Below are positions 31,526 through 61,788 of a DNA stretch of 64,000 bases, piece by piece. Made by a program: the position numbers and the translations under genes. Source of the stretch: Leucoraja erinacea (taxonomy: Eukaryota); contig NC_073411.1 of the NCBI RefSeq assembly GCF_028641065.1, positions 10,788,001-10,852,000 of the forward strand, given 5' to 3'. How positions within the stretch are numbered: position 1 is the first letter of the stretch; each line of letters begins with the position of its first letter. Below the pieces are notes generated by a model. That model saw only the letters and a list, made by a program, of their open reading frames with translations, was not told the DNA's origin and did not search any database.

Positions 31526-31529
31526 GTCC

Positions 31530-31750
31530 CAGCCGCCAGCCCTCACCATTTCCTCGCTGGGCTCGGGGTTCGGGCTGCGGCGCCGCCCAGGCCCTGTTGT
31601 CAAGGGACACGGGGACAGGAAGCGCCGCCCCTCCGCTTCCCAGTGACGTCACCGCGCTTTCCGCGTCTGTGACCTCAGCCGGTGGACGTGTCAATCAAAC
31701 GCAGGTCACCGCCCCCACTTTAAACCAGATGATCGAGGGGCGTCTTTGGA
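31530..31750 (-). promoter_or_regulatory. NUDT18 promoter and non-coding first exon
   Basis: CpG-rich; palindromic CRE GTGACGTCAC at 31643-31652; ETS-like CTTCC sites; GC box; minus-strand donor ATG|GTGAGG at 31547/31546. Confidence 0.65.
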
Positions 31751-34893: not shown

Positions 34894-35083
34894 ATGTACC
34901 AGGAGATTGACGTTGCCACAGATCGATTAAAGCATCAGATGGATGGTGTGGAGGTTCATCCCAGTCAGCTGTATTCATCAATGCCATATTATCAACAATA
35001 TGGTAGGAATGCTTCCTTTCTCAGCAACACTGGCTCAGAACTTGCAGAATTGTCAAAACACCTCACAGCATTGTGCAAGGAAG
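34894..35083 (+). CDS. SEC24-like putative coding exon 1
   Basis: MYQEIDVAT...LCKE G|GTcctg; weak donor, but phase 1 matches the next exon; no recognisable homology. Confidence 0.5.
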
Positions 35084-38000: not shown

Positions 38001-41000
38001 TATTGTGATGTTTTATGGAATGTTACAAATCTAAAATGATGAATTACTTTAAGGCATTTCATCTCAATGAGGTTCATTGAGAAACTATGAATGTCAAATG
38101 CATTGGTTTATTGGGGCAGCACAACTAGCAAAGCTGCCTCTTCGTGCCTCCAGAGACCTGGGTTTGATGCTGACCTCGGATGCTATCTGTGTGGAGTTCA
38201 CATCTTGTGCCTCTGACCGCATGGGCTTCATTCAGTTGCTTTGGTTTCCTCCCACAATCCAAAGATGTGTGGGTCGGTAGACTTATTGGCCACTATAATT
38301 GCCCTCTAATTTGTAGGTGAGTTATGGCGTTGGGGCCAGTTAATTAAATTTAATCAGGAGTGGATACTTGGAATGAAAAGTGAAATCTCTACCGAAATGG
38401 AAATAATCTCAGCGTTTCTGCTTCTGGTGTTGGCGTAGCAACAAATCAAAGGCTNNNNNNNNNNNNNNNNNNNNNNNNNNNNNNNNNNNNNNNNNNNNNN
38501 NNNNNNNNNNNNNNNNNNNNNNNNNNNNNNNNNNNNNNNNNNNNNNNNNNNNNNNNNNNNNNNNNNNNNNNNNNNNNNNNNNNNNNNNNNNNNNNNNNNN
38601 NNNNNNNNNNNNNNNNNNNNNNNNNNNNNNNCAGATTCTGTTTCCATGCAGCATTGCATCATTAACGCAGACATCTGGTCAGACATCCAATTGGACATTC
38701 TGAATCTAAATAATTATTTTCTCAGGATGGAAATATCAAATATCAGAGGGCGTAGTTTTAAGGCGAGAGGAGCAAATTTTGAAGGAGATGTGTGGGGCAA
38801 GTTTTTTTTACACAGATTGAGTGAGCTGCCATGGATGGTGGTGGAGGCAGATATGATTATCACATTGAAGAGACCATTGGATGGGTACATGGGGGAATGG
38901 AGAGATATGGATTATGTGGCAGGCAGATAAGAGTTGATCTTGACATCATGTTCAGCATTGACGGGTCGATGGGCCTGTTCCTGTGCATTCTGTTCTGTTC
39001 TATGTTCTAAAGTGGAAATTTTCAACCACCATGTGAGATAAAGCAGTTTGTACATTCAAATGTACTGTTTTCTTTTTCAACAACTTCCCTTCCTCAGGTT
39101 CTCAAACACCAAGTCACAAACTATACGGTCCTTTCATCACTGGAGCAGGAGAGGGTACTGTTCATTCAGACCCTGCAACTGCAGCTGAACCTGTAAGTAG
39201 ATCTAATGTGAACCTGTGGACTTGGACCATTGGGTCTCCTCAACATTGCAGCTCACCCTAACCACACGACTCTGATGTTAGCAGTTACATTAAGAGTAAC
39301 TCTATAAAGCCGGTTGGGGTGAGGATGAAATAGGTGGGAGGCCTTGATGAGAAAATGCACCAAATAGCAACTAAGAATGTGTAGGAGGGAACTGCAGATG
39401 CTGGTTTACACTGAGGATGGACACAAAATGCTGACGTAACTCAGTGGGACAAGCAGCATCTATGGGTAGAAGGAGGAATGGGTGACATTTCAGGTTGAGA
39501 TCCTTCTTCAGACTGAGTCAGGGGAGAGGGAGACACAGAGATATGGAAGGGTAAGGAGTGAAGATGAGGACAAAGCTCCAGGAAAAAGTAGACTAGATCA
39601 TTGGTCGATAGGGGAAGGTGACAATGGAGTAAGATTATTGGCCAAGTATTCACATACAAGGAATTTGTCTTGATGCTCCGCCCACAAGTAACAACATGAC
39701 ATACAGTGACAGTTACGAATGACTCAGAAAACACTAAACATTATTAATAATAAAACATTAATGGGAATTAAGATGCAAGGCACTGAAGATCTCATTGAAT
39801 GGCAGAGCACCCTCAAATGCAGGAACAATCTTACATTTCAATGTTCCTATAATCTGAAAAAATTGTATTCCTCATGCAAGATAAGTTGTATCATAGGGGT
39901 TGAATAATAAAATCGATCATATCATGACTATTTTCAGAAATAGATAGATAGATAGCCTTTTATTGTCATTCAGACTTAGTCTGAACGAAATTGCAGCAGT
40001 CATACATATAATACAATACAATAAAACAACAATAAACACACATTAACATCCACCACAGTGAGTCCACCCAGCATCTCCTCACTGTGATGGAGGCAAAAGT
40101 CTTAGGTCGCAGTCTCTTCCCTCCCCTTCTCCCTCTGCGCTGGGGCGATATTTGTGGCAGAATTGTGGCAGAAGTTCAAAAAGTGTGATGTTTGAATTTG
40201 CCTTAGCTCTCTCACCATAAAGTCACGGAGGCATTCTGCTCGTTGATTATAATCGGATGTTGTGTCCTTGGTTTCAAAGAGCCGTCAATCGGGATCACTC
40301 GAGGAATCAGGAAATGGGATGAATCTGGATCTAATTCCCAATCCGGCAAGTAGTTCTTCTTCAGTTAGTAGAATGCAAATATTGTTGCTGTTACAAACAC
40401 CTCTATGTCAAAAGTATGCAGAGCCATTTCTACCTTCAACAGTTCTTCTTTTTGCAGCCTCGGGTAGAAGTGTTTTGGAAATTATCTTTGAGAGCTCATT
40501 TTATACCTTACTAGACCAACTCCCCCAATGGTGTGATCCCCCAACCCAATATTCCACTATGCACCCGTCTCCTCCAATGGAACTGAAGCCGTTCTCAAAA
40601 GTAAGATTCCAGCACTGCCCTGCCTCTTGAAAAAAAAATCCATTGACACCTCCCCTGCCTGCTGCAGCAGTGAAAAGTTCAGTGTTCCTGTCTTGCAACA
40701 TTGTTTTGAAGTGTGCTGGAAGCTGATAGGAAGAAGCAGCCGTCAACGAATCAAAAGGCAGGAAGGGATCCGTACTGCAGGCGGACGGATTTGAGTTTTA
40801 TATATATACCTTATGAGGGGGGGTTGGGTTGGGGGTGGGGCGGGGTGGGGGGGGGGGGGGGGGGGGGGTGTGCTGGTGAGCATTGGATAAAGATAAAGGT
40901 GCAGCCTGTAGATTCTGTGACCTCACTCACCTGAACATCCGTGAGATACTTTAAACTGCTTCCATAACATTAGTGTTACAGGAAATAATATTCATGGAAC

Positions 41001-44000: not shown

Positions 44001-47000
44001 TCCAAAAGTCCCAAATGCCTCTATCCTATGCCTCGAGCCTCCACCACCACCCGTGGCTGTATGTAAAGAAAACTTTTCCTTTAAACTTTGAGCAGTGGCG
44101 GACTGGGTCTAAAAATATTGGTTGCCAGGAGACAAAGGGGGCCCACTTCATCAAGGGCCCACTTGCCATCGGGCAAGCTGACACCCTGGCCAGTCCTCCA
44201 CTGACTCTGGGCCTCTCACAAAGCTATACCCTTTAGTATTTGATATTTCCATCCTGAGAAAAAAAATCTTTCTATCTGTGCCTCTCATAATTTTCAATAC
44301 TTATATCTTTTCTCCTCTCAACCTGTAGTATTCCAGAGAAAGAAAATCCAAGTTTGTCCAACCTCTCCTTACATAGAAACATAGAAAATAGGTGCAGGAA
44401 TAGGCCATTCGGCCCTTCAAGCCAGCACCGCCATTCAATATGATCATGGCTGATCATCCAAAATCAGTATCCCGTTCCGGCTCTCTCCCCATATCCATTG
44501 ATTCCCTTAGCCCTAAGAGGTAAATCTCTCTCTTAAAACATCCAGTGAATTGGCCTCCACTGCCTTCTGTGGCAGAGTATTCCACAGATTCACAACTCTC
44601 TGGGTGAAGACATTTTTCCTCGTCTCAGCCGACCTCTTATTCTTAAACTGTTCTGGTTCTGGACTCCCCCAACATGGGGAACATTTTTCCTGCATCTACC
44701 CTGTCCAATCTTCTAAGAATTTTATATGCTTCTATAAGATCCCTTTCCAAATTCCAGCGAATACAAACCCAGTGGACCCGTTCTCTCATCATATGTCAGT
44801 GCAGCCATCTCGGGAATTAACTTGGTGAACCTACGCTGCATTTCCCCAATAACAAAAATGTCCTTCCTCAAATTAGGAGACCAAAATTGCAAACATCACT
44901 CCAGGTGTAGTCTCACCAGGGCCCAGTACAACTGCAGTAGGACCTCCTTGCTCCTAAACTCAAATCCTCTGGCAATGAAGGCCAACATGCCATTAACTTT
45001 CTTCTCTGCCTGTTGTACCTGCATGCTCTCGAATCTATGCAGCATTCAAGTGAATACACTGTGGATGGCTTGGTTGTAATCATGCATTGTTTTTCCGCTG
45101 ACTGGATAGCACGCAACAAAAGAGCTTTTCATTGTACTTCAGTACATAGGAAAATACACACAACTATATTCCAATCATGTGGAGTAGAGAGGTCAGGTTG
45201 GTTATTGTGGACCGAGCGGAGGTGTTCGGCGAAACGATCGCCCAGCCTACGCTTGGTCTCACCGATATAGATCTGCTGACATCTAGAGCAGCGGATGCAA
45301 TAGATGAGGTTGGAGGAGGTGCAGGTAAACCTCTGTCGCACCTGGAACGACTGCTTGGGTCCTTGAACGGAGTCGAGGGGGGAGGTAAAGGGACAAGTGT
45401 TGCATCTCTTGCGGTTGCAAGGGAAAGTGCCCGGGGAGGGGGTGGTACGGGAGGGAAGGGAGGAATTGACAAGGGAGTTACGGAGGGAGCGGTCTTTGTG
45501 GAAGGCAGACATGGGGGGAGATGGGAAGATATGGCGAGTGGTGGGGCCATGTTGGAGGTGGCGAAACTGATGAAGGATTACTTGTTGTATGTGACGGCTG
45601 GTGGGGTGAAAGGTGAGGACTAGGGGGACATCATATTGATGTGGGATATGCAAGCTATGTGTGACTGTTGAAGAGATGTATTTTTTCTGTACTGATCGGA
45701 TGGTTGCACTTTGACTGATATTGTGTTTTGACTAAAATATAATCTCGGCAGAAATATACTAAATAGGCATGGTGAAATTTGCAAACCTGCCCACTGAGAA
45801 AATGTGTACCCGGTTTGCAAACATTTAAAAATAAAGAGTTTATTGTTTATTTTAGGCTCCTGTGCATTTGGTGGACTGTGGTGAAAGTGACCCCATACAG
45901 TGTGAGAAATGTGCAGCCTATATGTGCTCCATGATGCAGTTTCTGGACAATGGGCACACGTTTCAGTGTCCATTCTGTGATCGTATCTCACCAGGTAAGT
46001 GAGTACAGACACTATACGTCTTCATTAAAATCTGGACGATATTATTGAGTTAATATTTCTCTAGGAATTGTGAATTAGCAACTGTAGCTGACTTTTGAGA
46101 TAAATTACAAAATGTCTTTTAAGCTCCATTAAATACCACTGTTAAGGGGCTGTCCCACTTGGGCGACCTAATTGGCAAGTTTAGAAGAGTTAAAAAAAAT
46201 GGCGTATTGAAGACCTCCTTCGACTATGTTGAAGACCAGCTTCGACTATGTTGAAGACCAGCTTCGACTATGTTGAAGACCAGCTTCGACTAGCTACGAC
46301 TATCTATGACTAACTTCGGGAAAATTGGACACCAAATCGTGGAGACCTCCTTTGATCTCCTTCGACCTCCCTTCGACTATGATGAAGACTATCTACGACT
46401 TAGACTACCTTCGACTACCCTCATTTACCTACGACTAACATGCCGACCTACTACGACCTAATACGACTAAACCTACGAGTAAATAAAGTATCGATTTTTT
46501 TCCATGGCGACCTTTTTTTACTCGCGGGCATTTTTTTAACATATTGAAGAAAACACCGCGACCTAGCTGAGGCCTCGAGTACGTGGAGACCACTCTCGAG
46601 CATGAAGGAGAGTTACGAAGACCTCCTACGACCTCGTGTCGACCATGCTGCGAGTATGAGTCGAGGGCAAACTCGCCAGACCTCGCGGATTAGGTCGCCC
46701 AAGTGGGACAGGCCCTTTACCATGCAAATTCATGTCAATGCCAAATTGATGCTCCGTTGAAAAGATGTTTTTGCCCCTTTTAAAACTGACATCAAAAGGA
46801 AAAAAAGGTGTCTTGGATTGTATTCTGGTGCCTTGGAATGTAAATAGCTGTTTCATGTTGCTGTCTGTGTTTCCTTAACCAGTGCCGGATAACTACTTTC
46901 ACCCCATTGACTACACTGGGAAACGGGCCGATCGTCTTCATAGGCCAGAGCTGTCCCTGGGCTCCTACGAGTTTGTGCTACCAGAACAGCAAAGCAAGGT

Positions 47001-50000
47001 AAGCCACGGCTGAGGACAGCAGAAGGGTAGGGTCCATGGCGATCCATTCCATTCCTGCTCAGTTCACGGGGCTGCTGCAATGGCCAGACCTGAATGAATG
47101 AATGAATGAATAAGTTTATTGGCCAAGTATTCACATACAAGGAATTTGCCTTGGTGCTCCGCCCTGCAAGTGGCAACATGACATACAGTGATAGTTAGGA
47201 ATTGTAGATTGCTTATTGCATGTGAACCAATCACAGTAGAAATATCATCACTAACCCCAGCTTACTGTATGCTTTATATTAACACCCACTTCCTACACTA
47301 GGTAGTCTTGGAAGCGGTGATGATGAACTAGCAACTAACAACCTGCTGTACCGTTGTATTATGTGTATTAACTCCAGACTGTATAATATGCTTATTTACA
47401 GGAATGACACATAAAACATTAAACATTAATAATAAAATGTTTCATACTAATAAATGCCTCGCCCATTTGCTCACTGCAAGCTTTCCCATCTAAAACAAGA
47501 CGGAGTAGGTTTAGGATGAAGGGTTGGAGGTTTAGACAGGATCTGAGGAAGAACCTTTGCACCCTGAGGGTGATTGTAGTCTTTAGCGCACTGCCTGGGG
47601 GAGTGGTGGAGGTAGAGACTCTCACAAGATTTACAAAGTATGAAGAAAGGCATTTGAATTACCAAGGCTTATCAGACTATGGACGTAGTGTTGGTAAATC
47701 AGATTAGAATAGGCCAGTGTGGATGTGATCTAACAGCATGATAGGACCCGTTTCTGTGCTCTACAACTCAATAACAAATATTTCAGCATCTGCAAAGCTT
47801 TGCCCTTTAGATTAATGAAGCCATATCACGTACAGGAAAGTTCCAAAAAAATAAATGTCATCAAATAACAGTCAGAAGGAATAACTCGGCAACAAATTAA
47901 TACTTGCGACTGTAATGCATTTCGTTGTCTCTGTACTGTACACTGACAATGACAATTAAAATTGAATCTGAATCTGAATCTAATGGGGGCAACTAACTAG
48001 TTGAGTATATCTGGTTATGTTTGACTGGGAATCATGGTGAATAAAGTATTGGTTTCTCTTCTTTGCTCTTCCCACCCAGAGTGGCCGAGTTCCAGGTTCC
48101 GTGGGATTCATTTTCATGATTGATGTATCGTACAATGCGGTGAGGAGTGGCCTGCTTCACTTAGTCTGTGGCCAGTTGAAGAAAGTGGTCCATAATCTAC
48201 CAAGGTAAGGAGATGTCAGTACTGAAACTTGTCCTCGTGTGGTGATTCAACACAGCCCGTTGTAAGTACCGAAAGGTCTTTCTGATAAATGTGCTGAACT
48301 CAACACAAAGAATGTGTCTGAAGAAGGGTCTCGACCCGAAACGTCACCTATTCCTTTTCTCCAGAGATGCTGTCTGACCCGCTGAGTTGCTCCAGCTTTT
48401 TGTGTCAATCTTTGGTTTAAACCAGATTCTGCAGTTCCTTCCCACATCAGTAGCTCATCATCAGTGGCATGGTGGCACAGTGGTAGAGTTGCTGCCTTAT
48501 ACCCCCAGAGACCCGGATTCAAAATTCACTGCAGATGCTGTCTTTACGGAGTTTGTACGTTCTTCCTGTGACCTGTATGGGTTTTCTCCAGGACTCTGGT
48601 TTCCTCCCACACTCCCATGCTGTCCTTCAATTGAATTGAATCTGTACAGGCCAGTTTCCAAACCTGGTTGTTCCTCTATGAGTTCCCTGTCTCGGCTAAG
48701 TTATGGCAAACTGCCCCTCAGTGAGGGGTGTATCAGCCTTTGTTGAGCAGAGTGGCATGGTGAGTTCCTTTCACCATGCCATTATTCAACTTGAGAACCA
48801 CAGGTAGCAAACTGACTTGGCCTGGGCCACTGGAGATTGGAAACTGTTGTCAGACTCTCATTATAGAGGTGGAACATTGACAAGTGGGGTCTAAACATGT
48901 GTTCCAGATGTGTTATGTTTAAGAGCTTATTAGGATGAGCTTTTGGGTATTTAATGTGGATGTCTTCAGGTTTGGCACAAGCTGTCCCTGCTGTACTTTT
49001 TGTCTAGACAACAGGACTTCCTCTGGGGCATAATCAGATGGGAGTAAAAAAGTGCTGGTGGAACTCAACGGGTCAGGCAGCGTCTCGTTTAGTTTAGAGA
49101 TATAGCGTGGAAACAGGTCAGTCGACCCACCAAGTCCACGCTAACCAACAATCACCCGTACACTAGTTCTATCCCACACAAGGGACAATTTACAGAAGCC
49201 AATTAACCTACAAACCTGCACGTCTTTGGATTATGGATGGAAACCGGAGCACTGGGAGAAACCTACACGGACACGGGGAGAACATACAGGGAGCACCCGT
49301 GGTCAGGATCGAACTAGGGTCTCTGGCGCTGTGAGGCAGCAACTCTACCGCTGCGCTTGCATGCTGACCTCATGTTGGAACCAGAAACTTTACCTGTCCA
49401 TTCTTTCAACAGATGCAACCAGATCTGGTGAATTCCTGCAGCATTTTGTTTGTTGCCCAAGGTTGCAGCATCTGCAGTCTCGTGTGTCACTATGTAACTA
49501 GTTGCGTGTTTAATTGTTCTACAGGGAGCCCGGGGTTGAGGAGTCGGCTGTGAGAGTGGGATTCCTAACGTACAACAATGTTCTACATTTCTACAACGTG
49601 AAAAGCTCTCTGGTTCAGCCACAGATGATAGTGATGACTGACTTCTCCGATATGACAACACCGATGTTTGATGGATTCCTGGTCAACGTGAAGGATTCTG
49701 CTGCTCTTATCAACAAGTAAGAGCAAGGGCCTGGGAACCGGCACAAAGACATGGGAACTGGCACACTGCAGCTAAGAAATAACTGAGCATAGCAAAAGAA
49801 CTGAGCGACACAGTGGCGCAGCAGTAGAGTTGCTGCCTTACAGCGCCAGAGACCCGGGTTCGATCCTGGCCACGGGTTCTGTCTGTATGGAGTCTGTACG
49901 TTCTCCCCGTGACCTGTGTGGGTTTTCTCCAGGATCTCCGGTTTCCTCCCACACTCCAAAGACGTACAGGTTTGTCGGTAAATTGGCTTGGTATAATTTT

Positions 50001-53000
50001 AAATTATCCCTAGTGCGTGTAGCGTAGCATCGAAACATAGAAAATAGGTGCAGGAGTAGGCCATTCGGCCCTTCGAGCCTGCACCGCCATTCAATATAAT
50101 CATGGCTGATCATCCAACTCGGTATCCCATCCCTCCCTGCCTTCTCTCCATACCCCCTGATCCCTTTTTCCACAAGGGCCACATCTAACTCCCTCTTAAA
50201 TATAGCCAATGAACTGTGGCCTCAACTGCCTTCTGTGGCAGAGTATTCCACAGATTCACCACTCTCTGTGTGAAAAATGAGTGGTGAATCTGTGGAATTC
50301 TCTGCCACAGAAGGTTAGTGTGTGGGGATCGCTGGTCGGCGTGGACTCGGTGGGCCGAAGGGCCTGTTTCCGCGCTGTATCTCTAAACTAAAGATTGCCA
50401 AAACAGTGGTGCACCACCAATTCCTTGGTCTCCCTGTAAAGATAAAGGATCTTCTTCACCTTTAAACTGATGGTTGCACTGAATGGAAGGGGTTTGACCT
50501 TCCGTGTGTTCAACAGTGTTCTCTCTACCCTTCTGTTCCAGTTTGCTGGATAGGATCCCATTGCTGTTTGCAGACACTCCTGAAGCGGATGTTCTGTTTG
50601 GCCCTGCAATCCAGGCTGGGCTGGAAGCTCTGAAGGTAACAAGATGGCAGCTTTGAATTTGAACTTTGAACTTTAGGCAAGTCAGCATGGCAGTACGGTG
50701 GCACAGCGGTAGAGTTGCTGCTTTACAATCCCAGAGGCCTGGGTTCGATCCTGACCATAGGTGCTGTCTGTACAGAGATTGTATTTTCTCCCCTGCGCGG
50801 TTTCCTCCCACACTCCAAAGACATACAGGTTTGTAGGTTAATTGGCTTGGTATCATTGTAAATTGTTCTCAGTGCGTGTAGAGGGATATCCTGGTTGGCA
50901 CTGACATGGTGGGTCGAAGGGCCTGTTTCCGCGCTGTATCTCGAAACTAAACTAAGTAGGTTTCGCCCAATTAGTTCATGATAGCCCCAACATTGCACAA
51001 AGCAGTTTGCAGTACAATCAGATATTGCATGAGAGTCATTGATGCATTAATTGATAGTTGAGGTCTCCCAATGTCCTGGCCGACTCACCTTGGGTTTCCA
51101 CACTTCTCCACCCACCGCAACCAATATTTCTTGTATTGGATCCTGTACTGGGAACTGACCCATGAGCAGTTCAACGTGAGTCTATGTGTGGCCATTACTT
51201 GAGACTTGACAGTTTGACGAGCTTGTGATAAAAGTCTAAAGTAATGGTCTAACGGGGCAGTTCCTTGCACACCAGCATCACAAACAGTGGATTAATTAGC
51301 TCTCCATGGGAATCACAGTATGAAAATTATCTCCCTGTAAATTGTAATGGTTTTCTTCAGAGGGACAATAGCCCCACTTTGACCCCTCGTGAGTTGGCCT
51401 TAGTCTGCCCGAGACAAAGAGCAGAGATGAAAAACCACTCAGTCCGAGACAAAAGAATTGAAGAGTTCCAAATTGTGAAGCTGGAGGAAGGAATGTAAGT
51501 GGAAGCGGAGGGGAGAAATTGGTGTGAGTCCAGGTGGGGTACAGGGAGAGGGGGTATGTAATACGGGGGGAGGGAGAGGGGAAAGGTTATGTAGTTACCA
51601 ACAATTGGAGAATTCAATGTTCACACCGTTAGGTTGTAAGTTAGCCAAGTTAGACTGTGAGGGAGATCAGATGGTTGATAACTAAGGGGGGGATAAGTTG
51701 AGACGGGGCAATATAAGCTGCAAATCAGAGGGTGAAAACTTTTTTCAGTCACATTTGCAGTGGGAGGAGGCATTAAGAAGAACAAAAGCCTGTGGGGAGT
51801 TTGTGGGAAGCATGGAGTTAAATGCAATGAATTACACAGTGAGTGCCAAGATGATGTGCCGTTGTGTATGGCTGCTCCGCCTGCAGTCCGTCCTTTCACC
51901 CTCTTTTATTTTTATTTTTAATCCTGTCATCCATTTTAAGATAAAAAGCAAAGCCTTTTTTGGAGATTAAGAGAAAGGGAGTTATATAACAGTTTTTTCA
52001 TTAAAAAAAAATCTTACCAGCATAAAACTCTGTAAAAATATTGGTGCATCCTGTCACTACAAAATGTTTGTTGGAGGTCTTCTTTTATGTGGTGGGTGGG
52101 GGGGAGGGGGGGGGGGAAGGGGGAAACTATTTTAACACCAGTCCTACCTGGTCGGAGATGCGGTTTTCCTCCGAACCGCATCTTCGTCCTCTCTGTGCGG
52201 CCTACCATCGAGCTGGAGCAGCGCTGGAGCGGCGTTTCCTGCCGGGACTACAGCTTCGCCGGCGGTGTAGATGCTGGGACACCAACATGGAGCGGGCGAT
52301 GCCTTACCGGGTCGCCTTGCGGTAAGCTCCGGGGCACTGTGACCGCCGACTGCGACATCGTTGAGCTGCGGCTGCAGAGCGTCCAGCCGCGGGCGGGCGG
52401 CACTGGATTTACAACACCGCGGGGCCTGGGATCCGAGATCGCCAGGGTCGGAGGTCCGGCCAGCGCGGCCTGAGAACTTTGGACATTGCAGTCTTCGGGG
52501 AGGAAGCGGCCGCTTCAGTCCAGGCCGCTGAAGAATGTTCACCCGACGCCGATGATCCAGCTTCGCGGCAGAGGGCCTGAAAACACCGGGTTGGCTGAGG
52601 AGGCCACATATAGACCCCGACCTCGGGTGGACTATGAGGAGGAGAACTGGATATTTTTAGTGCCTTCCCTCACAGTGAATTCTGCTGTGGGGGGGGACGT
52701 TTCTTGTTGATTTCTATAGTGTACTGTTCTGTGTCTTTTTTCTTTTTCCTATTTTATTTTATATGGATTTATTGACATTTAATCTATTCAATTAGTTTAA
52801 TCAATCTCTGTAAAGCACTTTGGTTCAAAGTGATTTTGTTTGAAAGTGCTATATAAATAAATAGTACTTACTTCTAAACCCTGGCACCATTTGTTTTTGG
52901 AAGAACGCAATGATCATTGTTCTCACCTTTCTTTTCAACTCCATCAGGCTGCTGAATGCTTTGGCAAACTCTTCATATTCCACAGCTCCCTGCCCACCGT

Positions 53001-56000
53001 GGCTGTACAGGGAACCCTGAGGAATCGCATCACTGGCAAGGAGCAGGTATGGAATGGGAAATGGCGCTGAAACATGGTGCCGCCCGCATATGTTAATGTG
53101 CAAAAAGAATTTTACTTTGCAGTTTAATATTCCGTTTTATTTTAGAGAAACTGTGTGGAGACTGGCCCTTCGGCCCCACCGAGTCCGTGCTGGCCAGCAG
53201 ATCGCACGGTAACACTATCCTGCACGCTAGTGACAATTTACAATTTTACCAAAACCAAATGTCTTTGGAGTGTGGGAGGAAACTGGAGATCCACAGAAAC
53301 TGGCTCCGCAGCCCAATTTGCCCCATCTATGCGAGTAGCACATGCCTGCATTTGGCCCATTTCTCTCTAAACGTTCTCTATCCACCAACCTGGAAAAATC
53401 TATTAAACGTTGTTACTGGACCTGCCTCGGCTACGACATTTGGCGGATCGTTCCATATCCGCACCACCCTCTGTGTGTGTCATTCGCGTCCCTATTAAAT
53501 CTTTCCCCACCCTCTGGTTCTTGATTCCCCCTGCTCTGGGTGAAATATTCTGTACATTCATCCCATCTATTCCCCTCGTGATTTAAAACGCTCCCCTCAC
53601 GATTTGATACAACTTATTTTAGTTTGAAATTATTTCATGCATTTCTGTACTTTGCAAAGTAAAACATTGGGTAACAAGAAAACTGTTGAATATTAACATT
53701 CCATTAGCAATTTCTAAACCATACACAGCAAACGGTGTGTTTTTAATTTATTTCCCAGCATGTCCTTCATCCTCTTGACCTACAAACAAGCCATGTTACT
53801 TTGTTACAGGAGGCCAGAGGCTGCACTAAAGTAATGAGGGGTCATGTGGGCGGCACAGTGGCGCAGGGGTAGAGTTGCTGCCCTACAGCGCCAGAGACCC
53901 GGGTTCGTTCCTGACCACGGGTGCTGCCTGTACGGAGTTTGCACGTTCTCCCCCTGACATACATGAGTTTTCTCCGGGTGCTCCAGTTTCCTCCCACACT
54001 CCAAAGACGTACAGGTTTGTAGGCTAGTTGGCATGGTATCAATGTAAAATTGTCCTTGGTGTGTATAGGATACTGTTAGTGTGCGGGGATCACTGGTCAG
54101 CACGGGCTAGGATAGTCGAAGGGCCCATTGCCATGCTGTGTCTCTAAACTAATTCGCACTGCAGTTTCCTCTAGCTGGCTTGGCTGAGACAGGGGCTTGG
54201 GAGTGTGTTGTTGCCTGCATGAAGTGTTTGAAAGAATCAGAGCAGAGATTGAGCCTGCCTGCCGTGTCAGTCCTTGTTCCAGCCTCAGAGCAACTACTAT
54301 CAGATACTGGCCAAGCAGTGCGTGCAGCAAGGCTGCTGTGTGGACCTCTTCCTCTTCTCCGACCAGCACGTGGACATGTCCTCCCTGCTTCTGGTGACCT
54401 TCAAGACCGGAGGAAACCTCTACAACTACAGCAACTTCAAGGTTACACCTTTCTTAATCAGACAGCTTCTTCCACTCGATCTAAGTCTATTCTGGGTCTG
54501 TAGCTAGAACTCGTTTGATGTGCTTGGCAGGCTCAGGAAGATGCGGAGAAGTTCCAGGGAGACATCCAGAGGAACGTGGAGAAGGTGCTGGGGTTCAAGG
54601 CTGCCATGAACGTTCACACAAGGAAAGGTACCTTTCTTGGTCTTCTGAATATTTGTTGTGTCGATGTAACGCTTTCCAGGTGAACTTCCACAATATCTTC
54701 TCTGATTCCTTGCATAAAACCCAAAGCTATAGAACCCATTTTCTTCTTTGCTTTTCCTTCTTTGACCAGTTATCAGACACATCCAGGAACTACCATAACT
54801 CGACTCACTCGGTACTTGTTAACACATGACCCGGCAGTAGAGTTGTTGCCTCACAGCGCCAGAGACCCGGGTTTGATCCCGACTACGGGCGCTGTCTGTA
54901 CGGAGTTTGTACGTTCTCCCTGTGACCACGTTGGTTTTCTCCGAGATCTTCGGTTTCCCCGCACACTCCAAAGACGTACAGGTTGGTCGGTAAATTGGCT
55001 TGGTAAATGTAAAAATTGTCCCTAGTGGGCGTAGGATAGTGTTAATGTGTGGGGATCGCTGGTCGGCACGGACCCGGTGGGCCGAAGGGCCTGTTTCCCT
55101 GCTGTATCTCTAAACTAAACAAGAGACAGAGGTGATTTGAATCTTGACACATAGGACTGCAGATGCGGAGTTATAAAAAATGATACAATATAAAGATACA
55201 ACCTGACCTGCTGAGTTCCTCCAGCACCTTGTACACTGATTTGAATGTTGTTTTGTTCTGGGACCAGGTATCAGAGCGACCAAGTATTATGGCTCATTTC
55301 ACATGAACTCGAGTGAGATGGAACTGGCTGCTATTGACAGCGACAAGACTCTTGTGGTGGAGTTCAAACATTATGGGAGACTGCAGGAGGAGGATGGTGT
55401 GCCTATACAGGTAAATCCTCTCAACATGGACACAAAATGCTGGAGTCACTCAGTGGGACATAGAAACATAGGTAGGCCATACGGCCCTTCGAGCCAGCAC
55501 CGCCTTTCAATATGATCATGGCTGATCATCTAAAATCAGTACCCCGTTCCTGCTTTTTCCCCCCCATATTCCTTTGATTCCTTTAGCCCTAAGAACTAAA
55601 TCTAACTCTCTCTTGAAAACATCCAGTGAATTGGCCTCCACTGCCTTCTGTGGCAGAGAATTCCACAGATTCACAACTCTGTGGGTGGAAAAGTGTTTCC
55701 TCATCTCAGTCCTAAATGATCCACCACTTATTTTTAAACTGTGACCCCTGACTCTGGACTCCCCCATCATTGGGAACATTTTTCCTGCATCTAGCCTGTC
55801 CAATCCTTTAAGAATTTTATATATTTCTATAAGATATCCTCTCATCCTTCTAAATTCCAGAGAATACAAGCCCAGACGACCTATTCTTTCATCATATGTC
55901 AGTCCCACCCTCATGGGAATTAACCTGGTGAACCTACGCTGTACTCCCTCAATAGCAATAATGTCCTTCCTCAAATTTGGAGACCAAAATTGGACAGGTG

Positions 56001-59000
56001 CGGTCTCACCTGGGCCCTGTACAACAAAACCTGGGTGTACTTGCTCCTAAACTCAAATCCTCTTGTAATAAAGGCAAACATGCCACTAGCTTTCTTCACT
56101 GCCTGGTTTACCTGCATGGTTACTTTCAGTGACTGATGTACAAGCACACCCAGGTCTCATTACACCTCCCCTTTTCCTTATCTGACACCATTCAGATAAT
56201 AATCTGCCTTCCTGTTCTTGCCACCAAAGTGGATAACCTCACATTTATCCACATTATACTGCATCTGCCATGCATCTGCCCACTCACCCAACCTACCCAA
56301 GTCACCCTGCAGCCTCATAGAATCCTCATCGCACCTCACACTGCCACCCAGTTTTGTGTTATCTGCAAACTTGGAGATCTTACATTTAATACCCTCGTCT
56401 AAATCGTCAATAGGCAGGCAGCATCTCTGGATAGAAGGAATGGGTGACGTTTCGGGTCGAGACCCTTCTCAGCCTGAAGAAACGTCACCCATTCCTTCTC
56501 TCCAGAGATGCTGCCTATACTGCAGAGTTACTCCAGCTTTTTGAGCCTATCTTTGGTTGAAACCAGCATGTGCAGTTCCTTCCTACACTGTGCTGTTCTA
56601 TGTTGGGTTCTATGTTCACACCCAGAGCTGACTATCCTTGTCGCTTGCTCCTAGTTTGTGCTCCTGTACACAACAGTCCATGGTCAACGCAGGCTCAGGA
56701 TCCACAACGTTGCTCTCAACTGCTCCAACCAGCTGACTGACACCTTCAGGACATCACAGGCTGAAACCCTGTTGAACTACTTTGCCAAGTCAGGTGAGTA
56801 TATCAGCAGATTGGTCACACACAGCAGCGGACCAAGCTAGTTCCATATCCAGGATGTGATCACTCTGCAGAGGGTTAACATATGATGGGTGTTAGATGGC
56901 ACTGGGCCTGCACTCGCTGGAGTTTGGAAGGATGAGGGGGGACCCCTTGGCGCATGTGACAATAACCTGAACAAACCTGAGGGCAACTGAAGGATCCATC
57001 TCTCGAGCTTGCTACCATTCAATAAAATCAGGGCTGATGCCATGGTCTCCATGCTCCTGAATAGACCCACCAGCTTTCCAACCTCCTCTGTCCAACGCCC
57101 AAATATCTATCCATCTCGGCAATGGATATCTACAATAGACACTAGACAATAGGTGCAGGAGTAGGCCATTCAGCCCTCCGACCAAGCACCACCATTCACT
57201 GTGATCATGGCTGATCATCCACAATCAGTACCCCGTTCCTGCCTTTTCCCCATATCCCCTGACTCTGCTATTTTTAAGAGCCCTATCTAACTCTCTCTTG
57301 AAAGCATCCAGAGAATTGGCCTCCACTACCTTACGAGGCAAAGAATTCCACAAACTTTCTTTGGGTGAAAAAGTTTTTCGTCACCTCCGTTCTAACTGGC
57401 CTACCCCTTATTCTTAAAGTGTGGTCCCCTGGTTCTGGGCTTCCGCAACAATGGGAACATGTTTCCTGCCTCTAGCGTGTCCAATCCCTTAATAATCTTA
57501 TATGCTTCAATAAGATATCCTCTCATCCTTCTAAATTCCAGAGTGTACAAGCCCAGTTGCTCCATTCTATCAACATATGACAGTCCCGCCATCCTGGGAA
57601 TTAACCTGGTGAACCTACGCTGCACTCCCTCAATAGCAGGAATGTCCTTATTCCTCAATTACTTTACAATGATGTCGTTGAAGGAGTGCTTGATTGTACA
57701 AGGCCAGAGGGAATACTTCTCCACGGGGCTGGCAATTTTCCCAGTGACTGTGATACTGACTCAGTGTGTGTCTCTGTCTTGTCCAGCTTACCACAGGGTG
57801 CTTAGTCATTCCAGCAAGACAGTGCGGGACGAACTGGTGAACCAGGTGACCCGGATGTTGGCCCCTGCTACCGAAAGCACTGTGCCCAAGCTTCAGCCCA
57901 CGGAGGCCAGGTGAGACCAGGGTGGACAAGAGGTAGTGCGGGATCAACTGGGTTTCTCTCCACTGCCACGGATGGTGATGGATGGACCAGTGTTTGGGAT
58001 CCAAGAACATTGCAGTTGAAGTAATTGGTTCATCACATAGAAACATAGAAAATAGGTGCAGGAGGAGGCCATTCGGCCCTTCGAGCCAGCACCGCCATTC
58101 ATTGTGATCATGGCTGATCGTCCCCTATCGATAACCCGTGCCTGCCTTCTCCCCATATCCCTTGACTCCATTAGCCCCTAGAGCCCTATCTAACTCTCTC
58201 TTAAATCCATCCAGTGACTTGGCCTCCACTGCCCTCTGTGGCAGGGAATTCCATAAATTCACAACTCTCTGGGGCCAAGTTTTTCTCACCTCAGTCTTAA
58301 ATGACCCCCCCTTTATTCTAAGACTGTGTGGCCCCTGGTTCTGGACTCGCTCAACATTTGGGAACATTTTTCCTGCATCCAGCTTGTCCAGTCCTTTTAT
58401 AATTTTATATATTTCTATAAGATTCCCCCTCATCCTTCTAAACTCCAGTGAATACAAGCCTAGTCTTTTCAATCTTTCCTCATATGACAGTCCCGCCTGC
58501 CATATTACATCACAGGTCATTAATCACAAGGTTGTAAATTATAGGAGAAGAATTAGGCCATTCGACCCATCAAGTCTACTGCCCCATTCAATCATGGCTG
58601 ATCTATCTCTCCCTCCTAACCCCATTCGCCTTCTCCCCATTACCCCCGATTCACGTACTAATCAAGAATCTATCTATCTCTGCCTGAAAAATATCCATTG
58701 ACTTGGCCTCCACAGCCATCTACGGCACAGAATTCCACTGATTCACCACCACCATCACTACAGAATCCACTGTCTGCATTGTGTGCAGCTAATAGGGCAG
58801 CTGCCAGATAACTCCAACATCGCAGGTTCAATCCTGACCACCAGTGCTGTCTGTGTGGAGTTTATTTTAGTTTAGAGATACAGTGCGGAAACAGGCCCTT
58901 CGTTCCACTGACCAACGATCCCTGCACATTAACACTACCCTACACACACACACACAAGGGCCATTTACATTTTTTACCTAACCAATTAACCTACAACCCT

Positions 59001-61695
59001 GTACGTCTTTGGAGTGTGGGAGGAAACCGAAGATCTCGGAGAAAAGCCGCGCAGGTCACGGGTAGAATGTACAAACTCCGCCCGTGGTCAGGATCGAACC
59101 AGGAACTCGGGGGCTATAAGGCAGCAACCGTGCCATCGAAGTCATTGGCTCTTCACACCACAGGTCATTAATCCTCTGTCTGCAATGTGTGCAGATAATG
59201 GAGGGGCTACCACACAGCTCCAAGATCGCAGGTTCAATCCTGACCACTGGTGCTATCTATGTGGAGTTGGAAAGTCCAGTCAGGGTAATTGGCGCCACCT
59301 TGTGTTGGGACTAATTCTAACGCTCTGCTCCCCAACAGATGGTGATGCCCCAGTTTCTTAAAGTCATGCCCCTGTACGTGAATTGCCTGCGGAAGAGTAA
59401 AGTGCTGCTTGAAGGGGCAGATGCACCCATTGATGAGAGAGCATACCTCAGGCATGTGGTCATGTCCATGGATATTGCAGAGACCAATGCCTTCTTCTAC
59501 CCTTGCCTCTTGCCAATAGTAAGTATCGCCACACACCTTGCCTGCTTTGAACACAGAGGCTGAAGATCGACACCACATGCAGGAGTAACTCAGCAGGTCA
59601 GCCAGCATCTGCGGAGAAAAAGGATGGATGGGGGATGTTTCGAGTCGGGACCATTCTCCAGACCCGAAACGTCACCCATCCTTTTTGCCCAGATTTGCTG
59701 CTGACTTACTCCTGTACGTTGTGTTAAGTTCAAGTTCAAGTGAGTTTATTGTCATGTGTCCCTGATAGGAGAATGAAATTCCTGCTTTGCTTCAGCACAC
59801 AGAACATAGTAGGCATTTACTACAAAACAGATCAGTGTGTCCATATACCATAATATAAATATATACACACATGAATAAATGAACCGATAAAGTGCAAATA
59901 ACAGATAATGGGTTATTAATAATCAGAGTTTTGTCCAAGCCAGGTTTAATAGCCTGATGGCTGTGGGGAAGTAGCTATTCCTGAACCTGGTTGTTGCAGT
60001 TTTCAGGCTCCTGTACCTTCTACCTGAAGGTAGCAGGGAGATGAATGTGTGGCCAGGATGGTGTGGGTCTTTGATGATGCTGCCAGCCTTTTTGAAGCAG
60101 TGACTGCGATAGATCCCCTCGATGGAAGGAAGGTCTTTGTGTCTATCTTTGGTATAAACCAGTTTGTTGTTTCTCCATCTTGTACGGAGGCTGGCAGTGT
60201 CACTTGGTCATTTCACAGTGAATGCACCTATTTTCTATGTGTCTATGTTTCTCTCTCTCTGTACACCTGGACTGTAGCACGATCTGAATGGGAGCCAGGT
60301 GTCGCTGCCTCGAGCTGTGCGATGTTCACGCAGGTGGCTGTCGGCCAGGGGCGTCTACCTGCTGGAGGATGGTCTCCGCTTGCTGCTGTGGATTGGGATG
60401 GACACCCCCACTGAGTGGATCCAGGATGTATTTGGCGTGCCCTCCTTCAGCGAGGTCAACTGCGGAGTGGTCAGTACCATCTCTTTAGACTTTAGACACA
60501 CAGCGCGGAAACAGGCCCTTCGGCCCATACCAACCAGCGATCCCCGCACACTAACACTATCCTACACACCAAGGACAATTTACAATTTTACCAAAGCCAA
60601 TTAAACTACAAACCTGTACGTCTTCAGTGTGTGTGAGGAAAAAGCCCCATGCAGGTCACGGGTAGAACGTGCAAACTCCGTACAGACATCAGCAGTAGTC
60701 CTAATAGACGGCGTATCTCTGACGCTGTAAGGCAGCAACTCTACCGCTGCACCACCTGTTCACAAGAGGCTCAACGGACAGGACCTTCCCCTGGGAGTGG
60801 AAGTTATCAGACCATTCTTCACACTCCAACCACGTACAGGTCCGTAGGCTAATTGTCTTGGTAAAAGTGTAACTTGTCCCTAGTGTGTGGGGTAGTGTTA
60901 ATGTGTGGGGATCGCTGGTCGGCAGGCAATTAAAAACTAAAACTGAATGTGTTGGTGCAGTCAATGGCCTTTTGGGGTGGCGGCAGGGTTGGTTGGGGGG
61001 AGGGAAGGCAGCGCATCTTCAAGGAAATGTTGGCCTCAGCTGTGCCCCATCGCTGTGTTTCAGGGTTCTCTCCCAGTGCTGGCCAACGCACTCTCCCGGC
61101 AAATCCGAAACGTCATGGCCAGGGTGCGTAAGGAGAGGCCGAGATTCCTCAAGGCAAGTTTATCGTCAGTCTGACCCGACCCTCAACGTCACCTATCCTC
61201 TGCATCCTCCATAGATGCTGCCTGACCCACTGAGTTACTCCAGCACTTTGTGCCTAACTTTATTACCTGCTCTTGGATAGTACACCATGAGATGTTTAAG
61301 AAGGAACTAAAGACGCTGGAAAAATCGGTAGACAAAAATGCTGGAGAAACTCAGCGGGTGAGGCAGCATCTATGGAGCGAAGGAATATTGATACACTGGA
61401 GATGTGGGGGTTTTGGTGGGAATAGGAGATGTGTTTGGGGGGGGAGGGACAGGTCAGAGGAGAGAAGAACGGGCACCTTGAAACCTTGCTCCTTTAGACA
61501 TTATAGAGAAGCAGAATCGCCCGGACTAACACACACTCTCGCTTGCCCTTCCAGTTGCTCATCGTGAAACAGACGGATGATGCAGAGAGACAGTTCCTGC
61601 AGTATCTGGTCGAAGACAAGAATCCCAGTGGGGGAGCATCATATGCAGACTTCCTCTCTCATATCCACGTCTCCATCCAACGATCTCTCCAATAG
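34894..61695 (+). CDS. COPII coat subunit SEC24C/D-like (divergent), 20 coding exons, about 914 aa after correcting one frameshift
   Basis: Twenty exons with splice consensus and matching phases, except for one frameshift in exon 16. Motifs: [26 protein letters not shown], zinc finger CxxC...CPFC, HRPELSLGSYEF, FMIDVSYN, RVGFLTY, GQRRLRIHN, gelsolin-like segment, LVEDK...SYADFL. Domain order matches the SEC24C/D subfamily. Confidence 0.9.
36110..36490. repeat. Two adjacent tandem arrays: ~30 bp x4 and 41 bp x5.5
   Basis: CAGTCACTCAGGGCTGGTGGGCTGGCAGCT, then CATTTCAAGCAGAGTGCAGGCCACCACATTCAATTTCATAG. Confidence 0.85.
37327..37506 (+). CDS. SEC24-like exon 2 (Pro/Ser/Gln-rich N-terminus)
   Basis: cctAG|AT TAC...GAC A|GTaagt; open frame DYDGASTAPYSSSGLP...QPD. 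Confidence 0.65.
38455..38631. other. Assembly gap (177 N)
   Basis: Run of n in SEC24-like intron 2; could hide an exon. Confidence 0.99.
39098..39192 (+). CDS. SEC24-like exon 3
   Basis: ctcAG|GT TCT...GAA CCT|GTaagt; ends HSDPATAAEP, the position of LDPDxIPSP in SEC24C/D. Confidence 0.7.
41670..41985 (+). mobile_element. Penelope-like element 3' end (ORF C-terminus plus terminal repeat with hammerhead motif)
   Basis: EQHLIFHLGSLHPSGMNID (PLE C-terminal signature), followed by the terminal repeat that recurs throughout the window. Confidence 0.8.
41852..41885 (+). ncRNA. Putative minimal type I hammerhead ribozyme
   Basis: GGT-CTGAAGA-A-GGGTC(TC)GACCC-GAA-ACGT-C-ACC: CUGANGA core, stem II, GAAA, palindromic ACGU helix III, GUC cleavage triplet, stem I GGU/ACC. 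Confidence 0.65.
42012..42123 (+). CDS. SEC24-like exon 4
   Basis: [39 protein letters not shown]/GT. Confidence 0.9.
43195..43322 (+). CDS. SEC24-like exon 5
   Basis: [45 protein letters not shown]/GT. Confidence 0.9.
43390..43671. mobile_element. Truncated related Harbinger-type MITE
   Basis: Right end GTACAGTGGGACGGGCCCT resembles the 46.7-kb TIR; CpG-rich interior; left TIR not found. Confidence 0.55.
44370..45030 (-). mobile_element. CR1-clade LINE 3' fragment
   Basis: Degenerate RT C-terminus (FTQRVVNLWNTLPQKAVEA) and the same 3' tail. Other fragments at ~38700-39010 (+), 41027-41310 (+), 25310-25445 (-) and 63380-63625 (-). Confidence 0.8.
45185..45630 (-). mobile_element. Penelope-like retroelement fragment (GIY-YIG endonuclease region)
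   Basis: ORF VPLVLTFHP...PGTFPCNRKRCNTC...FTCTSSNLIYCIRCSRCQQIYIGETKRRLGDRFAEHLRSV has the CxxxxC..C linker plus GIY-YIG typical of PLEs. Confidence 0.9.
45856..45994 (+). CDS. SEC24-like exon 6 (zinc finger)
   Basis: APVHLVDCGESDPIQCEKCAAYMCSMMQFLDNGHTFQCPFCDRISP; AG/GT. Confidence 0.9.
46145..46716. mobile_element. PIF/Harbinger-type MITE
   Basis: 28-bp TIRs AGGGGCTGTCCCACTTGGGCGACCTAAT / ATTAGGTCGCCCAAGTGGGACAGGCCCT (1 mismatch) flanked by a TTA/TTA target-site duplication; no ORF. Confidence 0.85.
46883..46998 (+). CDS. SEC24-like exon 7
   Basis: VPDNYFHPIDYTGKRADRLHRPELSLGSYEFVLPEQQSK; AG/GT. Confidence 0.9.
48080..48204 (+). CDS. SEC24-like exon 8 (start of trunk domain)
   Basis: SGRVPGSVGFIFMIDVSYNAVRSGLLHLVCGQLKKVVHNLP; AG/GT. 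Confidence 0.9.
48315..48348 (+). ncRNA. Putative minimal hammerhead ribozyme (second intact-core copy)
   Basis: GT-CTGAAGAAGGGTCTCGACCCGAAACGTC-AC. Confidence 0.55.
49525..49716 (+). CDS. SEC24-like exon 9
   Basis: [34 protein letters not shown]...DGFLVNVKDSAALIN; AG/GT. Confidence 0.9.
49805..50390 (+). mobile_element. HE1-type SINE with a nested CR1 LINE 3' fragment (~50031-50312)
   Basis: SINE head at 49805; body interrupted by an inverted CR1 tail; SINE tail resumes at ~50315. Confidence 0.75.
50542..50635 (+). CDS. SEC24-like exon 10
   Basis: LLDRIPLLFADTPEADVLFGPAIQAGLEALK; AG/GT. Confidence 0.9.
52060..52860 (+). mobile_element. GC/CpG-rich non-coding interspersed repeat (unclassified non-autonomous retroelement)
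   Basis: LINE-like 3' tail GTAAAGCACTTTG...AAGTGCTATATAAATAAA. The internal motif GTGCCTTCCCTCACAGTGA is related to the reverse complement of CACTGTGATGGAAGGCA at ~103, ~29020 and ~40080. Confidence 0.5.
52948..53046 (+). CDS. SEC24-like exon 11
   Basis: AAECFGKLFIFHSSLPTVAVQGTLRNRITGKEQ; AG/GT. Confidence 0.88.
53846..54150 (+). mobile_element. HE1-type SINE (near full length)
   Basis: GGGCGGCACAGTGGCGCAGGGGTAGAGTTGCTGCC...GGGTTCG...TCTCTAAAC. Further copies at ~37651, 38113, 48466, 50688 and 54830 (+) and ~49090, 58866 and 60485 (-). Confidence 0.8.
54271..54441 (+). CDS. SEC24-like exon 12
   Basis: [39 protein letters not shown]...TGGNLYNYSNFK; AG/GT. Confidence 0.9.
54531..54627 (+). 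CDS. SEC24-like exon 13
   Basis: AQEDAEKFQGDIQRNVEKVLGFKAAMNVHTRK; follows an 89-bp intron. Confidence 0.88.
55268..55410 (+). CDS. SEC24-like exon 14 (beta-sandwich)
   Basis: GIRATKYYGSFHMNSSEMELAAIDSDKTLVVEFKHYGRLQEEDGVPIQ; AG/GT. Confidence 0.9.
55460..56405 (-). mobile_element. CR1-clade LINE 3' fragment (RT C-terminus plus 3' UTR)
   Basis: ORF KDIIAIEGVQRRFTRLIP...LGLYSLEFRRMRGYLIEIYKILKGLD...FSTHRVVNLWNSLP, with (TTTCTATG)n tail. Confidence 0.88.
56655..56793 (+). CDS. SEC24-like exon 15
   Basis: FVLLYTTVHGQRRLRIHNVALNCSNQLTDTFRTSQAETLLNYFAKS; AG/GT. Confidence 0.9.
57130..57657 (-). mobile_element. CR1-clade LINE 3' fragment
   Basis: AIEGVQRRFTRLIPRMAGLSY...LEFRRMRG. Confidence 0.85.
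57787..57910 (+). CDS. SEC24-like exon 16 (apparent frameshift in a C-run)
   Basis: AYHRVLSHSSKTVRDELVNQVTRMLA, then a shift at GCCCCTGC (57861-57868) into CYRKHCAQASAHGGQ|GTgaga. Confidence 0.8.
58036..58497 (-). mobile_element. CR1-clade LINE 3' fragment
   Basis: AGLSYEERLKRLGLYSLEFRRMRG...RVVNLWNSLPQRAVEA. Confidence 0.85.
59339..59518 (+). CDS. SEC24-like exon 17 (helical domain)
   Basis: MVMPQFLKVMPLYVNCLRKS...DERAYLRH...FFYPCLLPI; AG/GT. Confidence 0.9.
60278..60469 (+). CDS. SEC24-like exon 18 (gelsolin-like repeat)
   Basis: HDLNGSQVSLPRAVRCSRRWLSARGVYLLEDGLRLLLWIG...WIQDVFGVPSFSEVNCGV; AG/GT. Confidence 0.88.
61064..61153 (+). CDS. SEC24-like exon 19
   Basis: GSLPVLANALSRQIRNVMARVRKERPRFLK; donor AAG|GCAAGT (GC-AG intron). 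Confidence 0.85.
61555..61695 (+). CDS. SEC24-like last exon with stop codon
   Basis: LLIVKQTDDAERQFLQYLVEDKNPSGGASYADFLSHIHVSIQRSLQ*; branch-point-like GACTAAC upstream. Confidence 0.9.
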   Translation: MLIVKQTDDAERQFLQYLVEDKNPSGGASYADFLSHIHVSIQRSLQ

Positions 61696-61782
61696 CCCCC
61701 ACCCACCCAACCTCAACCCTGTGTCCTCTCTTGCCTCCTTTTTAAAAAAAAATCTAAAATAATTTATTCAATTGTTATAAAA

Positions 61783-61788
61783 AATAAA
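61783..61788 (+). terminator. Polyadenylation signal of the SEC24-like gene
   Basis: AATAAA about 90 nt after the stop, followed by GT-rich sequence. Confidence 0.55.

Follow-up and report, generated by a model that had tools for sequence, protein, structure and literature searches.

Gene content of the locus

The window analysed here, a stretch of 64,000 nucleotides from the little skate Leucoraja erinacea (assembly GCF_028641065.1, contig NC_073411.1, positions 10,788,001 to 10,852,000, forward strand), contains a SEC24 gene of 21 coding exons on the plus strand next to several genes on the minus strand (Table 1). With exon borders set by script, the gene runs from the ATG at 34894 to the TAG at 61695 and comprises 2816 coding bases. 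Its splice sites are canonical (18 GT-AG and two GC-AG introns), the GC donors being situated at positions 40345 and 61153 (2 of 20 introns). Once two bases in exon 17 are skipped, the product is 937 residues long and identical to an NCBI record (P0001) entitled 'LOW QUALITY PROTEIN: protein transport protein Sec24C-like [Leucoraja erinacea]'. An initial annotation of this DNA had described complete SEC24C/D-type domains and exon structure, which is borne out by the 21 exons and five Sec23/24 Pfam domains, and the motifs it had pointed to, NGHTFQCPFC in exon 7 and RNRITGKEQ in exon 12, are both found in the sequence. Ahead of the start codon, the sequence has an AG acceptor as well as a short ATG frame; the GC profile did not place the first exon of the gene.

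Among solved structures, human NUDT18 comes closest to the NUDIX exon of the head-to-head neighbour (E 2.8e-20). The 5' end of this gene (31500-31750) is GC-rich (66%) and could be a promoter shared with the SEC24 gene. A search with the helicase exons matched bacterial DEAD-box proteins alone; DDX56 is a presumptive name for them. The proposed NUDT18-DDX56 neighbourhood is confirmed with respect to NUDT18 and a DEAD-box helicase, and a Myb/SANT-domain gene absent from the initial annotation intervenes. The DEAD-box gene's initial exon or exons did not turn up at about 5400-14200, a region that reads like error-rich, unpolished sequence.

Table 1. Features of the 64,000-nucleotide window (positions are those of the window).
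Feature	Position	Strand	Basis
DEAD-box helicase, three exons	3226..4613	-	Pfam
Myb/SANT-domain gene, at least three exons, between NUDT18 and DEAD-box exons	17100..21969 (3' end approximate)	-	PF13873, E 3.8e-12
NUDT18, head to head with SEC24 gene	26440..31549 (5' end approximate)	-	NUDIX exon
Third SEC24C/D paralog, 21 exons, 937 aa	34894..61695	+	model identical to P0001, splice sites
Exons 1-7	34894-35002, 37243-37506, 39098-39192, 40280-40345, 42012-42123, 43195-43322, 45856-45994	+	
Exons 8-14	46883-46998, 48080-48204, 49525-49716, 50542-50635, 52948-53046, 54271-54441, 54531-54627	+	
Exons 15-21	55268-55410, 56655-56793, 57787-57910, 59339-59518, 60278-60469, 61064-61153, 61555-61695	+	
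N-terminal disordered region, exons 1-4, 171 aa, 11% Pro, no PPP	34894..40324	+	pLDDT <50 over residues 1-166
177-N gap, intron 2; apparently no coding exon missing	38455..38631		
Zinc finger C274, C277, C296, C299 (exon 7), kept	45901..45978	+	PF04810
Q341, place of B-site Tyr496 (human SEC24A)	46990..46992	+	alignment
T429, place of trunk-strand Phe retained in other SEC24s	49655..49657	+	alignment
Exon 12, ends in loop six residues shorter in batoid rows	52948..53046	+	alignment
N597-V-H599, place of B-site Arg750-x-Arg752 (human SEC24A; PMC5464768)	54609..54617	+	alignment
C run with two extra bases, exon 17 frameshift, likely assembly error	57862..57865	+	gapped spliced contigs
M738-V-M740, place of IxM-site L895-I-L897 (human SEC24C); one-residue insertion in preceding loop	59339..59347	+	
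AATAAA, candidate polyadenylation signal	61783..61788	+	sequence

The frameshift in exon 17

The 2816 coding bases exceed a multiple of three by two; the surplus lies in the C run of exon 17, and the literal reading stops at codon 740, which the initial annotation does not mention. The ortholog record from the thorny skate is 937 residues long, differs at 32 positions and carries no quality flag. Four of 24 listed sequencing runs were aligned to 54200-61750, and two of them, X3 and X1, yielded spliced contigs falling within exons 13-21; these two are presumed to be RNA and may stem from other skate species. One X3 contig represents exons 13 and 15-19 as a single spliced piece with 16 differences in 949 letters, and the 97 letters between exons 13 and 15 correspond to the length of exon 14. 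Across exon 17 this contig has 122 letters and two gaps, and its frame is therefore open; three spliced contigs from X1 likewise show two gaps over exon 17. Because the extra bases are absent from the spliced contigs, the frameshift is likely an assembly error. In X24, the one run recorded as polyA, of which about 6% was read, depth is about 1 or less per strand in exon-only bins and first mates are mostly on the minus strand; the run depth tables are dominated by intronic repeats. Among 17 listed differences in exons 17-20, 11 are silent when scored one by one, the differences being few and pre-selected. At positions 59443, 60377 and 61117 all four aligned runs have the same alternative letter, which may point to private alleles or erroneous bases in the window.

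Domain architecture and predicted fold

The protein belongs to the Sec23/Sec24 family, with zinc finger, trunk, beta-sandwich, helical and gelsolin domains in this order and all above the Pfam cut-off. The four zinc-ligand cysteines are present in 20 of 21 aligned sequences of the paralog clade introduced below. Within the family it falls into Sec24II (SEC24C/D), being closer to C/D than to A/B and placed inside the vertebrate C/D radiation; phmmer returned E values of 6.5e-277 and 2.9e-267 for SEC24C and SEC24D compared with 1e-97 for SEC24A/B. Two ESM Atlas searches gave matches limited to general Sec24 clusters.

An AlphaFold2 model computed from a 72-row alignment reached a pLDDT of 82.5 and a pTM of 0.82 (pLDDT 30.6 with 11 close rows only). 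It superimposes on SEC24D with 1.3 A and a TM score of 0.98 by target, and on SEC24A/B with TM scores of 0.87-0.88. A SEC24 fold is therefore plausible as a prediction, a match that was to be expected as the alignment included SEC24C/D relatives. Human SEC24C (PDB 3EH2), SEC24D (PDB 3EFO, 5KYW) and the Sec24II proteins of Schlacht and Dacks (PMC4419792, in the part drawn on here) share with the skate protein the same five domains, the zinc finger, the predicted fold and a disordered N-terminus. In contrast to SEC24C/D, the paralog has an N-terminal region of about half the length with half the proline (323-378 residues and 20-22% Pro in four SEC24C records), evolves several times faster and forms a separate clade. 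The initial estimate of about 155 residues for this region holds if counting starts at the second Met, where some orthologs begin (about 156 residues), but not from the first Met (171 residues).

Sequence divergence

Over 774 core columns, the paralog is 54.8% identical to skate SEC24C and 51.9% to echidna SEC24D, whereas the latter two share 67.8%, such that the gene is indeed more diverged than SEC24C and SEC24D are from each other, as had been supposed. Between skate and white shark, identity is 70.3% for the paralog versus 94.3% for SEC24C, and between skate and coelacanth 55.2% versus 85.4%. Of 176 positions conserved in 70% of the other rows, 117 are shared by 80% or more of the clade rows and 15 by 10% or fewer; B-site and IxM residues and a trunk-strand Phe are among these 15. 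Clade-wide marks are an insertion ahead of the GQ motif and FR-x-SQAE in place of YRNCETD. The short RNRITGKEQ loop, initially listed among the signs of a divergent gene, had to be abandoned as a hallmark of the paralog since it is confined to batoid rows and shark rows are full-length.

Phylogeny

Trees were calculated with LG+G4 (26 rows) and LG+C20 PMSF (21 rows). Sea cucumber and arthropods served as the only outgroups and SEC24D was represented by three rows, two of them partial; lamprey, hagfish, amphioxus and chondrichthyan SEC24D rows were not included. Support amounts to 100/100 for the paralog clade, 97/96 for SEC24C, 100/99 for SEC24D and 100/100 for the vertebrate node. The paralog clade splits into an elasmobranch and a bony-fish half, and the duplication is therefore older than the split between sharks and bony fish; it is younger than the split from invertebrates, as a copy from the second round of vertebrate genome duplication (2R) should be.

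AU tests were run on 18 of the 26 rows, omitting Gouania, P0189, cod, catshark, sawfish, aphid and two SEC24C rows. They reject nesting of the clade in SEC24C (p 0.001-0.006, its two trees collapsing to one polytomy), nesting in SEC24D (p <0.0001) and duplications that arose independently (p at most 0.0003). As to how the three groups branch, SEC24D is the partner of the clade in the best tree (88/90) and also in a FastTree calculation with 80 rows, which we treat as prone to long-branch attraction. The gap in log-likelihood to the pairing with SEC24C is about 2-7 units, and none of the three orders is rejected, also when slow rows alone are used (AU 0.115-0.35 for clade plus SEC24C, 0.10-0.125 for SEC24C plus SEC24D). 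Diagnostic columns for ordering SEC24C, SEC24D and the clade number 0, 1 and 1 and do not favour one order.

These results uphold the view of a third SEC24C/D paralog, as opposed to a relocated ortholog or a duplicate of recent date. Orthology to SEC24C is contradicted by the separate SEC24C record of the skate and AU p values of 0.006 or less, and orthology to SEC24D by AU p values of <0.0001 and by Polypterus, which carries both genes on different contigs. That the gene is nevertheless a moved SEC24C or SEC24D ortholog or a recent lineage-specific duplicate, as the name 'Sec24C' of several members in databases might suggest, can practically be dismissed: these placements are rejected by AU and, for SEC24C, the idea is refuted by the canonical gene in the skate, coexistence with SEC24D resting on Polypterus.

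Distribution of the paralog

In three protein searches, a profile search run on 50% representatives and three look-ups of clusters, orthologs were recovered from seven batoids, seven sharks, the coelacanth, two bichirs and three teleosts (Gouania, Osmerus and Danionella) plus one further record (P0189). Among all proteins compared, the ratio of the clade-profile score to the C/D-profile score is at least 1.23 for 40 clade records, seven clade members having themselves been part of the clade profile, and the next record has 1.04. P0189 is found in the bony-fish half on a long branch outside the bichirs and teleosts; were it from a lungfish or an amphibian, the date of loss would shift. Four records from coelacanth, Gouania, Osmerus and Polypterus (P0054, P0191, P0233 and P0382) are filed as SEC24C in UniRef/NCBI and fall into the new clade. 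A zebrafish gene with a clone-type name is presumably also Sec24C-like; no paper carrying that name was found.

The coelacanth, bichir and teleost orthologs rule out a restriction to cartilaginous fish, and the initial description of a gene retained in that group proved too narrow. No member from tetrapods, holocephalans, orectolobiforms, gar, sturgeon or lungfish was present among the matches listed (best 120 or 150 per search). As fast-evolving clade members score low in searches, such lists are no test of absence. The proposed loss in mammals agrees with the lists to this extent. Carpet sharks and the elephant shark (P0384-P0393, P0045-P0052) have SEC24C only among the matches listed, which may reflect further losses or gaps in the lists.

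In 12 species including the little skate, the paralog and SEC24C records reside on contigs of different length. The little skate possesses a separate canonical SEC24C on another chromosome, the paralog contig comprising 15,576,883 and the SEC24C contig 19,860,700 bases.

Chromosomal location and origin

The initial argument for a 2R origin was based on human loci, which we take to be 10q22 for SEC24C, 4q26 for SEC24D, 8p21 for NUDT18 and 7p13 for DDX56; the latter two presumably represent the sister 8p/7p/2p segment of the 4/5/8/10 paralogon. In the sections of PMC10115646 drawn on here (preprint 10.1101/2022.03.21.485123), the supplement lets Leri_35C end at 15,576,883 and Leri_34C at 19,860,700, exactly the lengths of the P0001 contig and of the skate SEC24C contig, respectively. 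For linkage group I/Q, Table 3 of the same paper assigns LER15 and LER34 to 1-alpha, LER35 (chicken 22) to 1-beta, LER1 and perhaps LER3 to 2-alpha and LER11 to 2-beta. The paralog on Leri_35C (1-beta) and SEC24C on Leri_34C (1-alpha) are therefore located as expected for 2R ohnologs. Beta segments have experienced more gene loss and faster evolution (PMC10115646), and from this trend and the 1-beta location a fast and often lost sister of SEC24C is predicted. Rate and patchy retention of the paralog fit this prediction; the best tree, without significance, pairs the clade with SEC24D instead.

From the identity of the chromosome and the pre-gnathostome date, established without lamprey, hagfish and amphioxus, we consider a 2R origin of the paralog highly probable. 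The earlier proposal of such an origin thus gains the chromosome expected for a 2R copy and is weakened by a best tree that joins the clade to SEC24D rather than to the SEC24C predicted from the chromosome, though not significantly. Differential retention of 2R ohnologs has been described in 68 cases, among them wnt6b and cspg5 (PMC10115646), and the paralog likewise lies on a beta segment, evolves fast and is patchily retained. It differs from these ohnologs in being kept jointly in chondrichthyans, coelacanth and ray-finned fish, which places it outside the three classes counted there. The name 'sec24c' is absent from the searched part of the supplementary text of PMC10115646; the list of 68 could include the gene.

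It is unlikely that the gene is an old paralog of another kind, that is, a moved 2R sister of SEC24D or a single-gene duplicate arisen before the split of sharks and bony fish. The best trees do group the clade with SEC24D, but the small gap in log-likelihood leaves clade plus SEC24C unrejected, the clade and SEC24D both evolve faster than SEC24C, and the gene sits on what PMC10115646 lists as the beta counterpart of the SEC24C chromosome.

Cargo-binding sites

SEC24 is the protein by which cargo is selected for ER export. Residues of the B site were mapped through an alignment with SEC24A and an offset of 342, for which a SEC24A length of 1093 is assumed. All four residues then land where PMC5464768 (in the part used here) puts them: Arg750, Arg752 and Tyr496, which contact C-terminal hydrophobic signals, and Leu773, which is Asp in SEC24C/D. 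The B site has been called universally conserved, and SEC24C binds SURF4 through it (PMC11557686). In the skate paralog the corresponding residues are N597, H599, Q341 and E619, and the standard combination of Arg750, Arg752 and Tyr496 is thus lacking. All 114 non-clade rows in an alignment spanning eukaryotes and all 221 SEC24C-like records, many of them isoforms or close kin, have Arg at the place of Arg752, but none of the 20 or 21 clade rows does, His, Phe, Tyr or Leu being found there; this change had gone unnoticed in the initial annotation. At the place of Arg750, the 21 clade rows feature Lys (12), Asn (7), Arg (1) and Thr (1), and Tyr496 has no Tyr counterpart in any of the 17 clade rows with a residue there. 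The same pocket is altered in the engineered SEC24D-L750W mutant, which packs p24 at 20-25% relative to wild type (PMC5464768). In the paralog, it is the arginines and the tyrosine that have been replaced, and naturally so, whereas the Leu mutated in SEC24D is retained in 12 of 20 rows.

The IxM site, defined by the LIL895AAA mutant (PMC5007090), reads LIL in 219 of 221 SEC24C-like records (two gaps) and in invertebrate rows but in none of 20 clade rows. There, the pattern is (M/L)-V-(M/I/L), MVM in the skate, and the exchanges are conservative; the place of I896 is taken by Val in 20 of 20 rows and the one-residue insertion is common to the clade. Replacement of the B-site Arg-x-Arg and Tyr, the changed LIL with its insertion and absence from the tetrapod matches all set the paralog apart from SEC24C/D. 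Furthermore, the clade shows erosion of basic residues at its zinc finger, and another residue stands in for the trunk-strand Phe in 20 of 20 clade rows, the adjacent Pro being kept in all 20 rows with a residue. This Phe is presumably part of the Sec23 contact; a literature search found no paper confirming this role.

Possible function and alternative explanations

On balance, we favour the interpretation that the little skate locus harbors a third SEC24C/D gene, likely the beta 2R sister of SEC24C, which probably encodes a COPII adaptor with altered cargo choice. By analogy with other members of the family, the protein would pair with Sec23 and be recruited by Sar1-GTP. Gone from its B site are the arginine pair and the tyrosine, which grip the terminal carboxylate in tails of p24, ERGIC-53 and SURF4, and poor capture of these tails is predicted; for p24, the expectation derives from the B-site mutant in which packaging is cut to 20-25% (PMC5464768). 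The IxM groove would be reshaped by hydrophobic swaps and the one-residue insertion and is thus predicted to recognise another set of signals. Carriers made with the paralog may then be poorer in p24 proteins and contain a narrower, probably tissue-restricted cargo set, and the gene would likely have been lost en route to tetrapods or within them. Several observations speak against this interpretation: replacement of the trunk-strand Phe in all 20 rows may weaken pairing with Sec23, both cargo sites may still bind given the conservative exchanges at the IxM site and the Lys that 12 of 21 rows have for Arg750, and in the best tree the clade pairs with SEC24D (88/90), not SEC24C. A bolder version, according to which a fifth SEC24 of jawed fish, a 2R ohnolog lost in tetrapods and lacking the 'universal' B site, builds distinct p24-poor COPII carriers, is put forward tentatively, and our judgement leans slightly against it.

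The same origin could also have given rise to a redundant adaptor under relaxed selection, with cargo much like that of SEC24C/D and changes due to drift. Long and uneven branches, longest in teleosts, several lineages without a record among the matches listed and the conservative nature of the IxM exchanges would agree with such drift. We nevertheless consider it improbable because the open frame has been kept across sharks, coelacanth and ray-finned fish, the exchange of I896 for Val in all 20 rows and the shared insertion look fixed, and 117 of 176 conserved positions are retained, the 15 lost ones including B-site and IxM residues. Slightly less probable still is a departure from the COPII coat, with a protein that has given up pairing with Sec23 and acts as a scaffold or decoy. 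A precedent exists in a Sec24-fold protein that builds the pre-conoid ring of Toxoplasma (PDB 9ya0), and the replaced trunk-strand Phe (20 of 20), the eroded basic residues at the zinc finger and the short N-terminal region without PPP point in the same direction, but all five domains, the adjacent Pro and the zinc ligands are kept and the Sec23 role of the Phe is presumptive, no confirming paper having been found. Finally, the gene could be a pseudogene in the little skate if the exon 17 frameshift were real and the C-terminal 200 residues were gone. The literal stop at codon 740, the LOW QUALITY flag at NCBI and the origin of the runs, possibly from other skate species, would be in line with this; it is very improbable in view of the position of the extra bases in a C run, their absence from the X3 contig (16 differences in 949 letters) and the X1 contigs, and the unflagged thorny-skate ortholog with 937 residues and 32 differences.

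Implications

The sequence of the gene has already been annotated as 'Sec24C-like' or 'Sec24C'; its standing as a clade of jawed fishes whose cargo sites have changed appears to be undescribed. A literature search, in which some queries were swamped by unrelated matches, found no paper on a third vertebrate SEC24C/D paralog. The sources drawn on here count four SEC24 paralogs in mammals and regard the B site as universally conserved (PMC9797344, PMC11557686). Database names mask the clade, several members being filed as SEC24C. Fish models of COPII disease weigh only sec24c and sec24d, and they would be affected if zebrafish has the gene, as its relative Danionella does. If our interpretation is true, a fifth paralog with a rebuilt pocket would constitute a natural experiment on the gain of COPII cargo after genome duplication.
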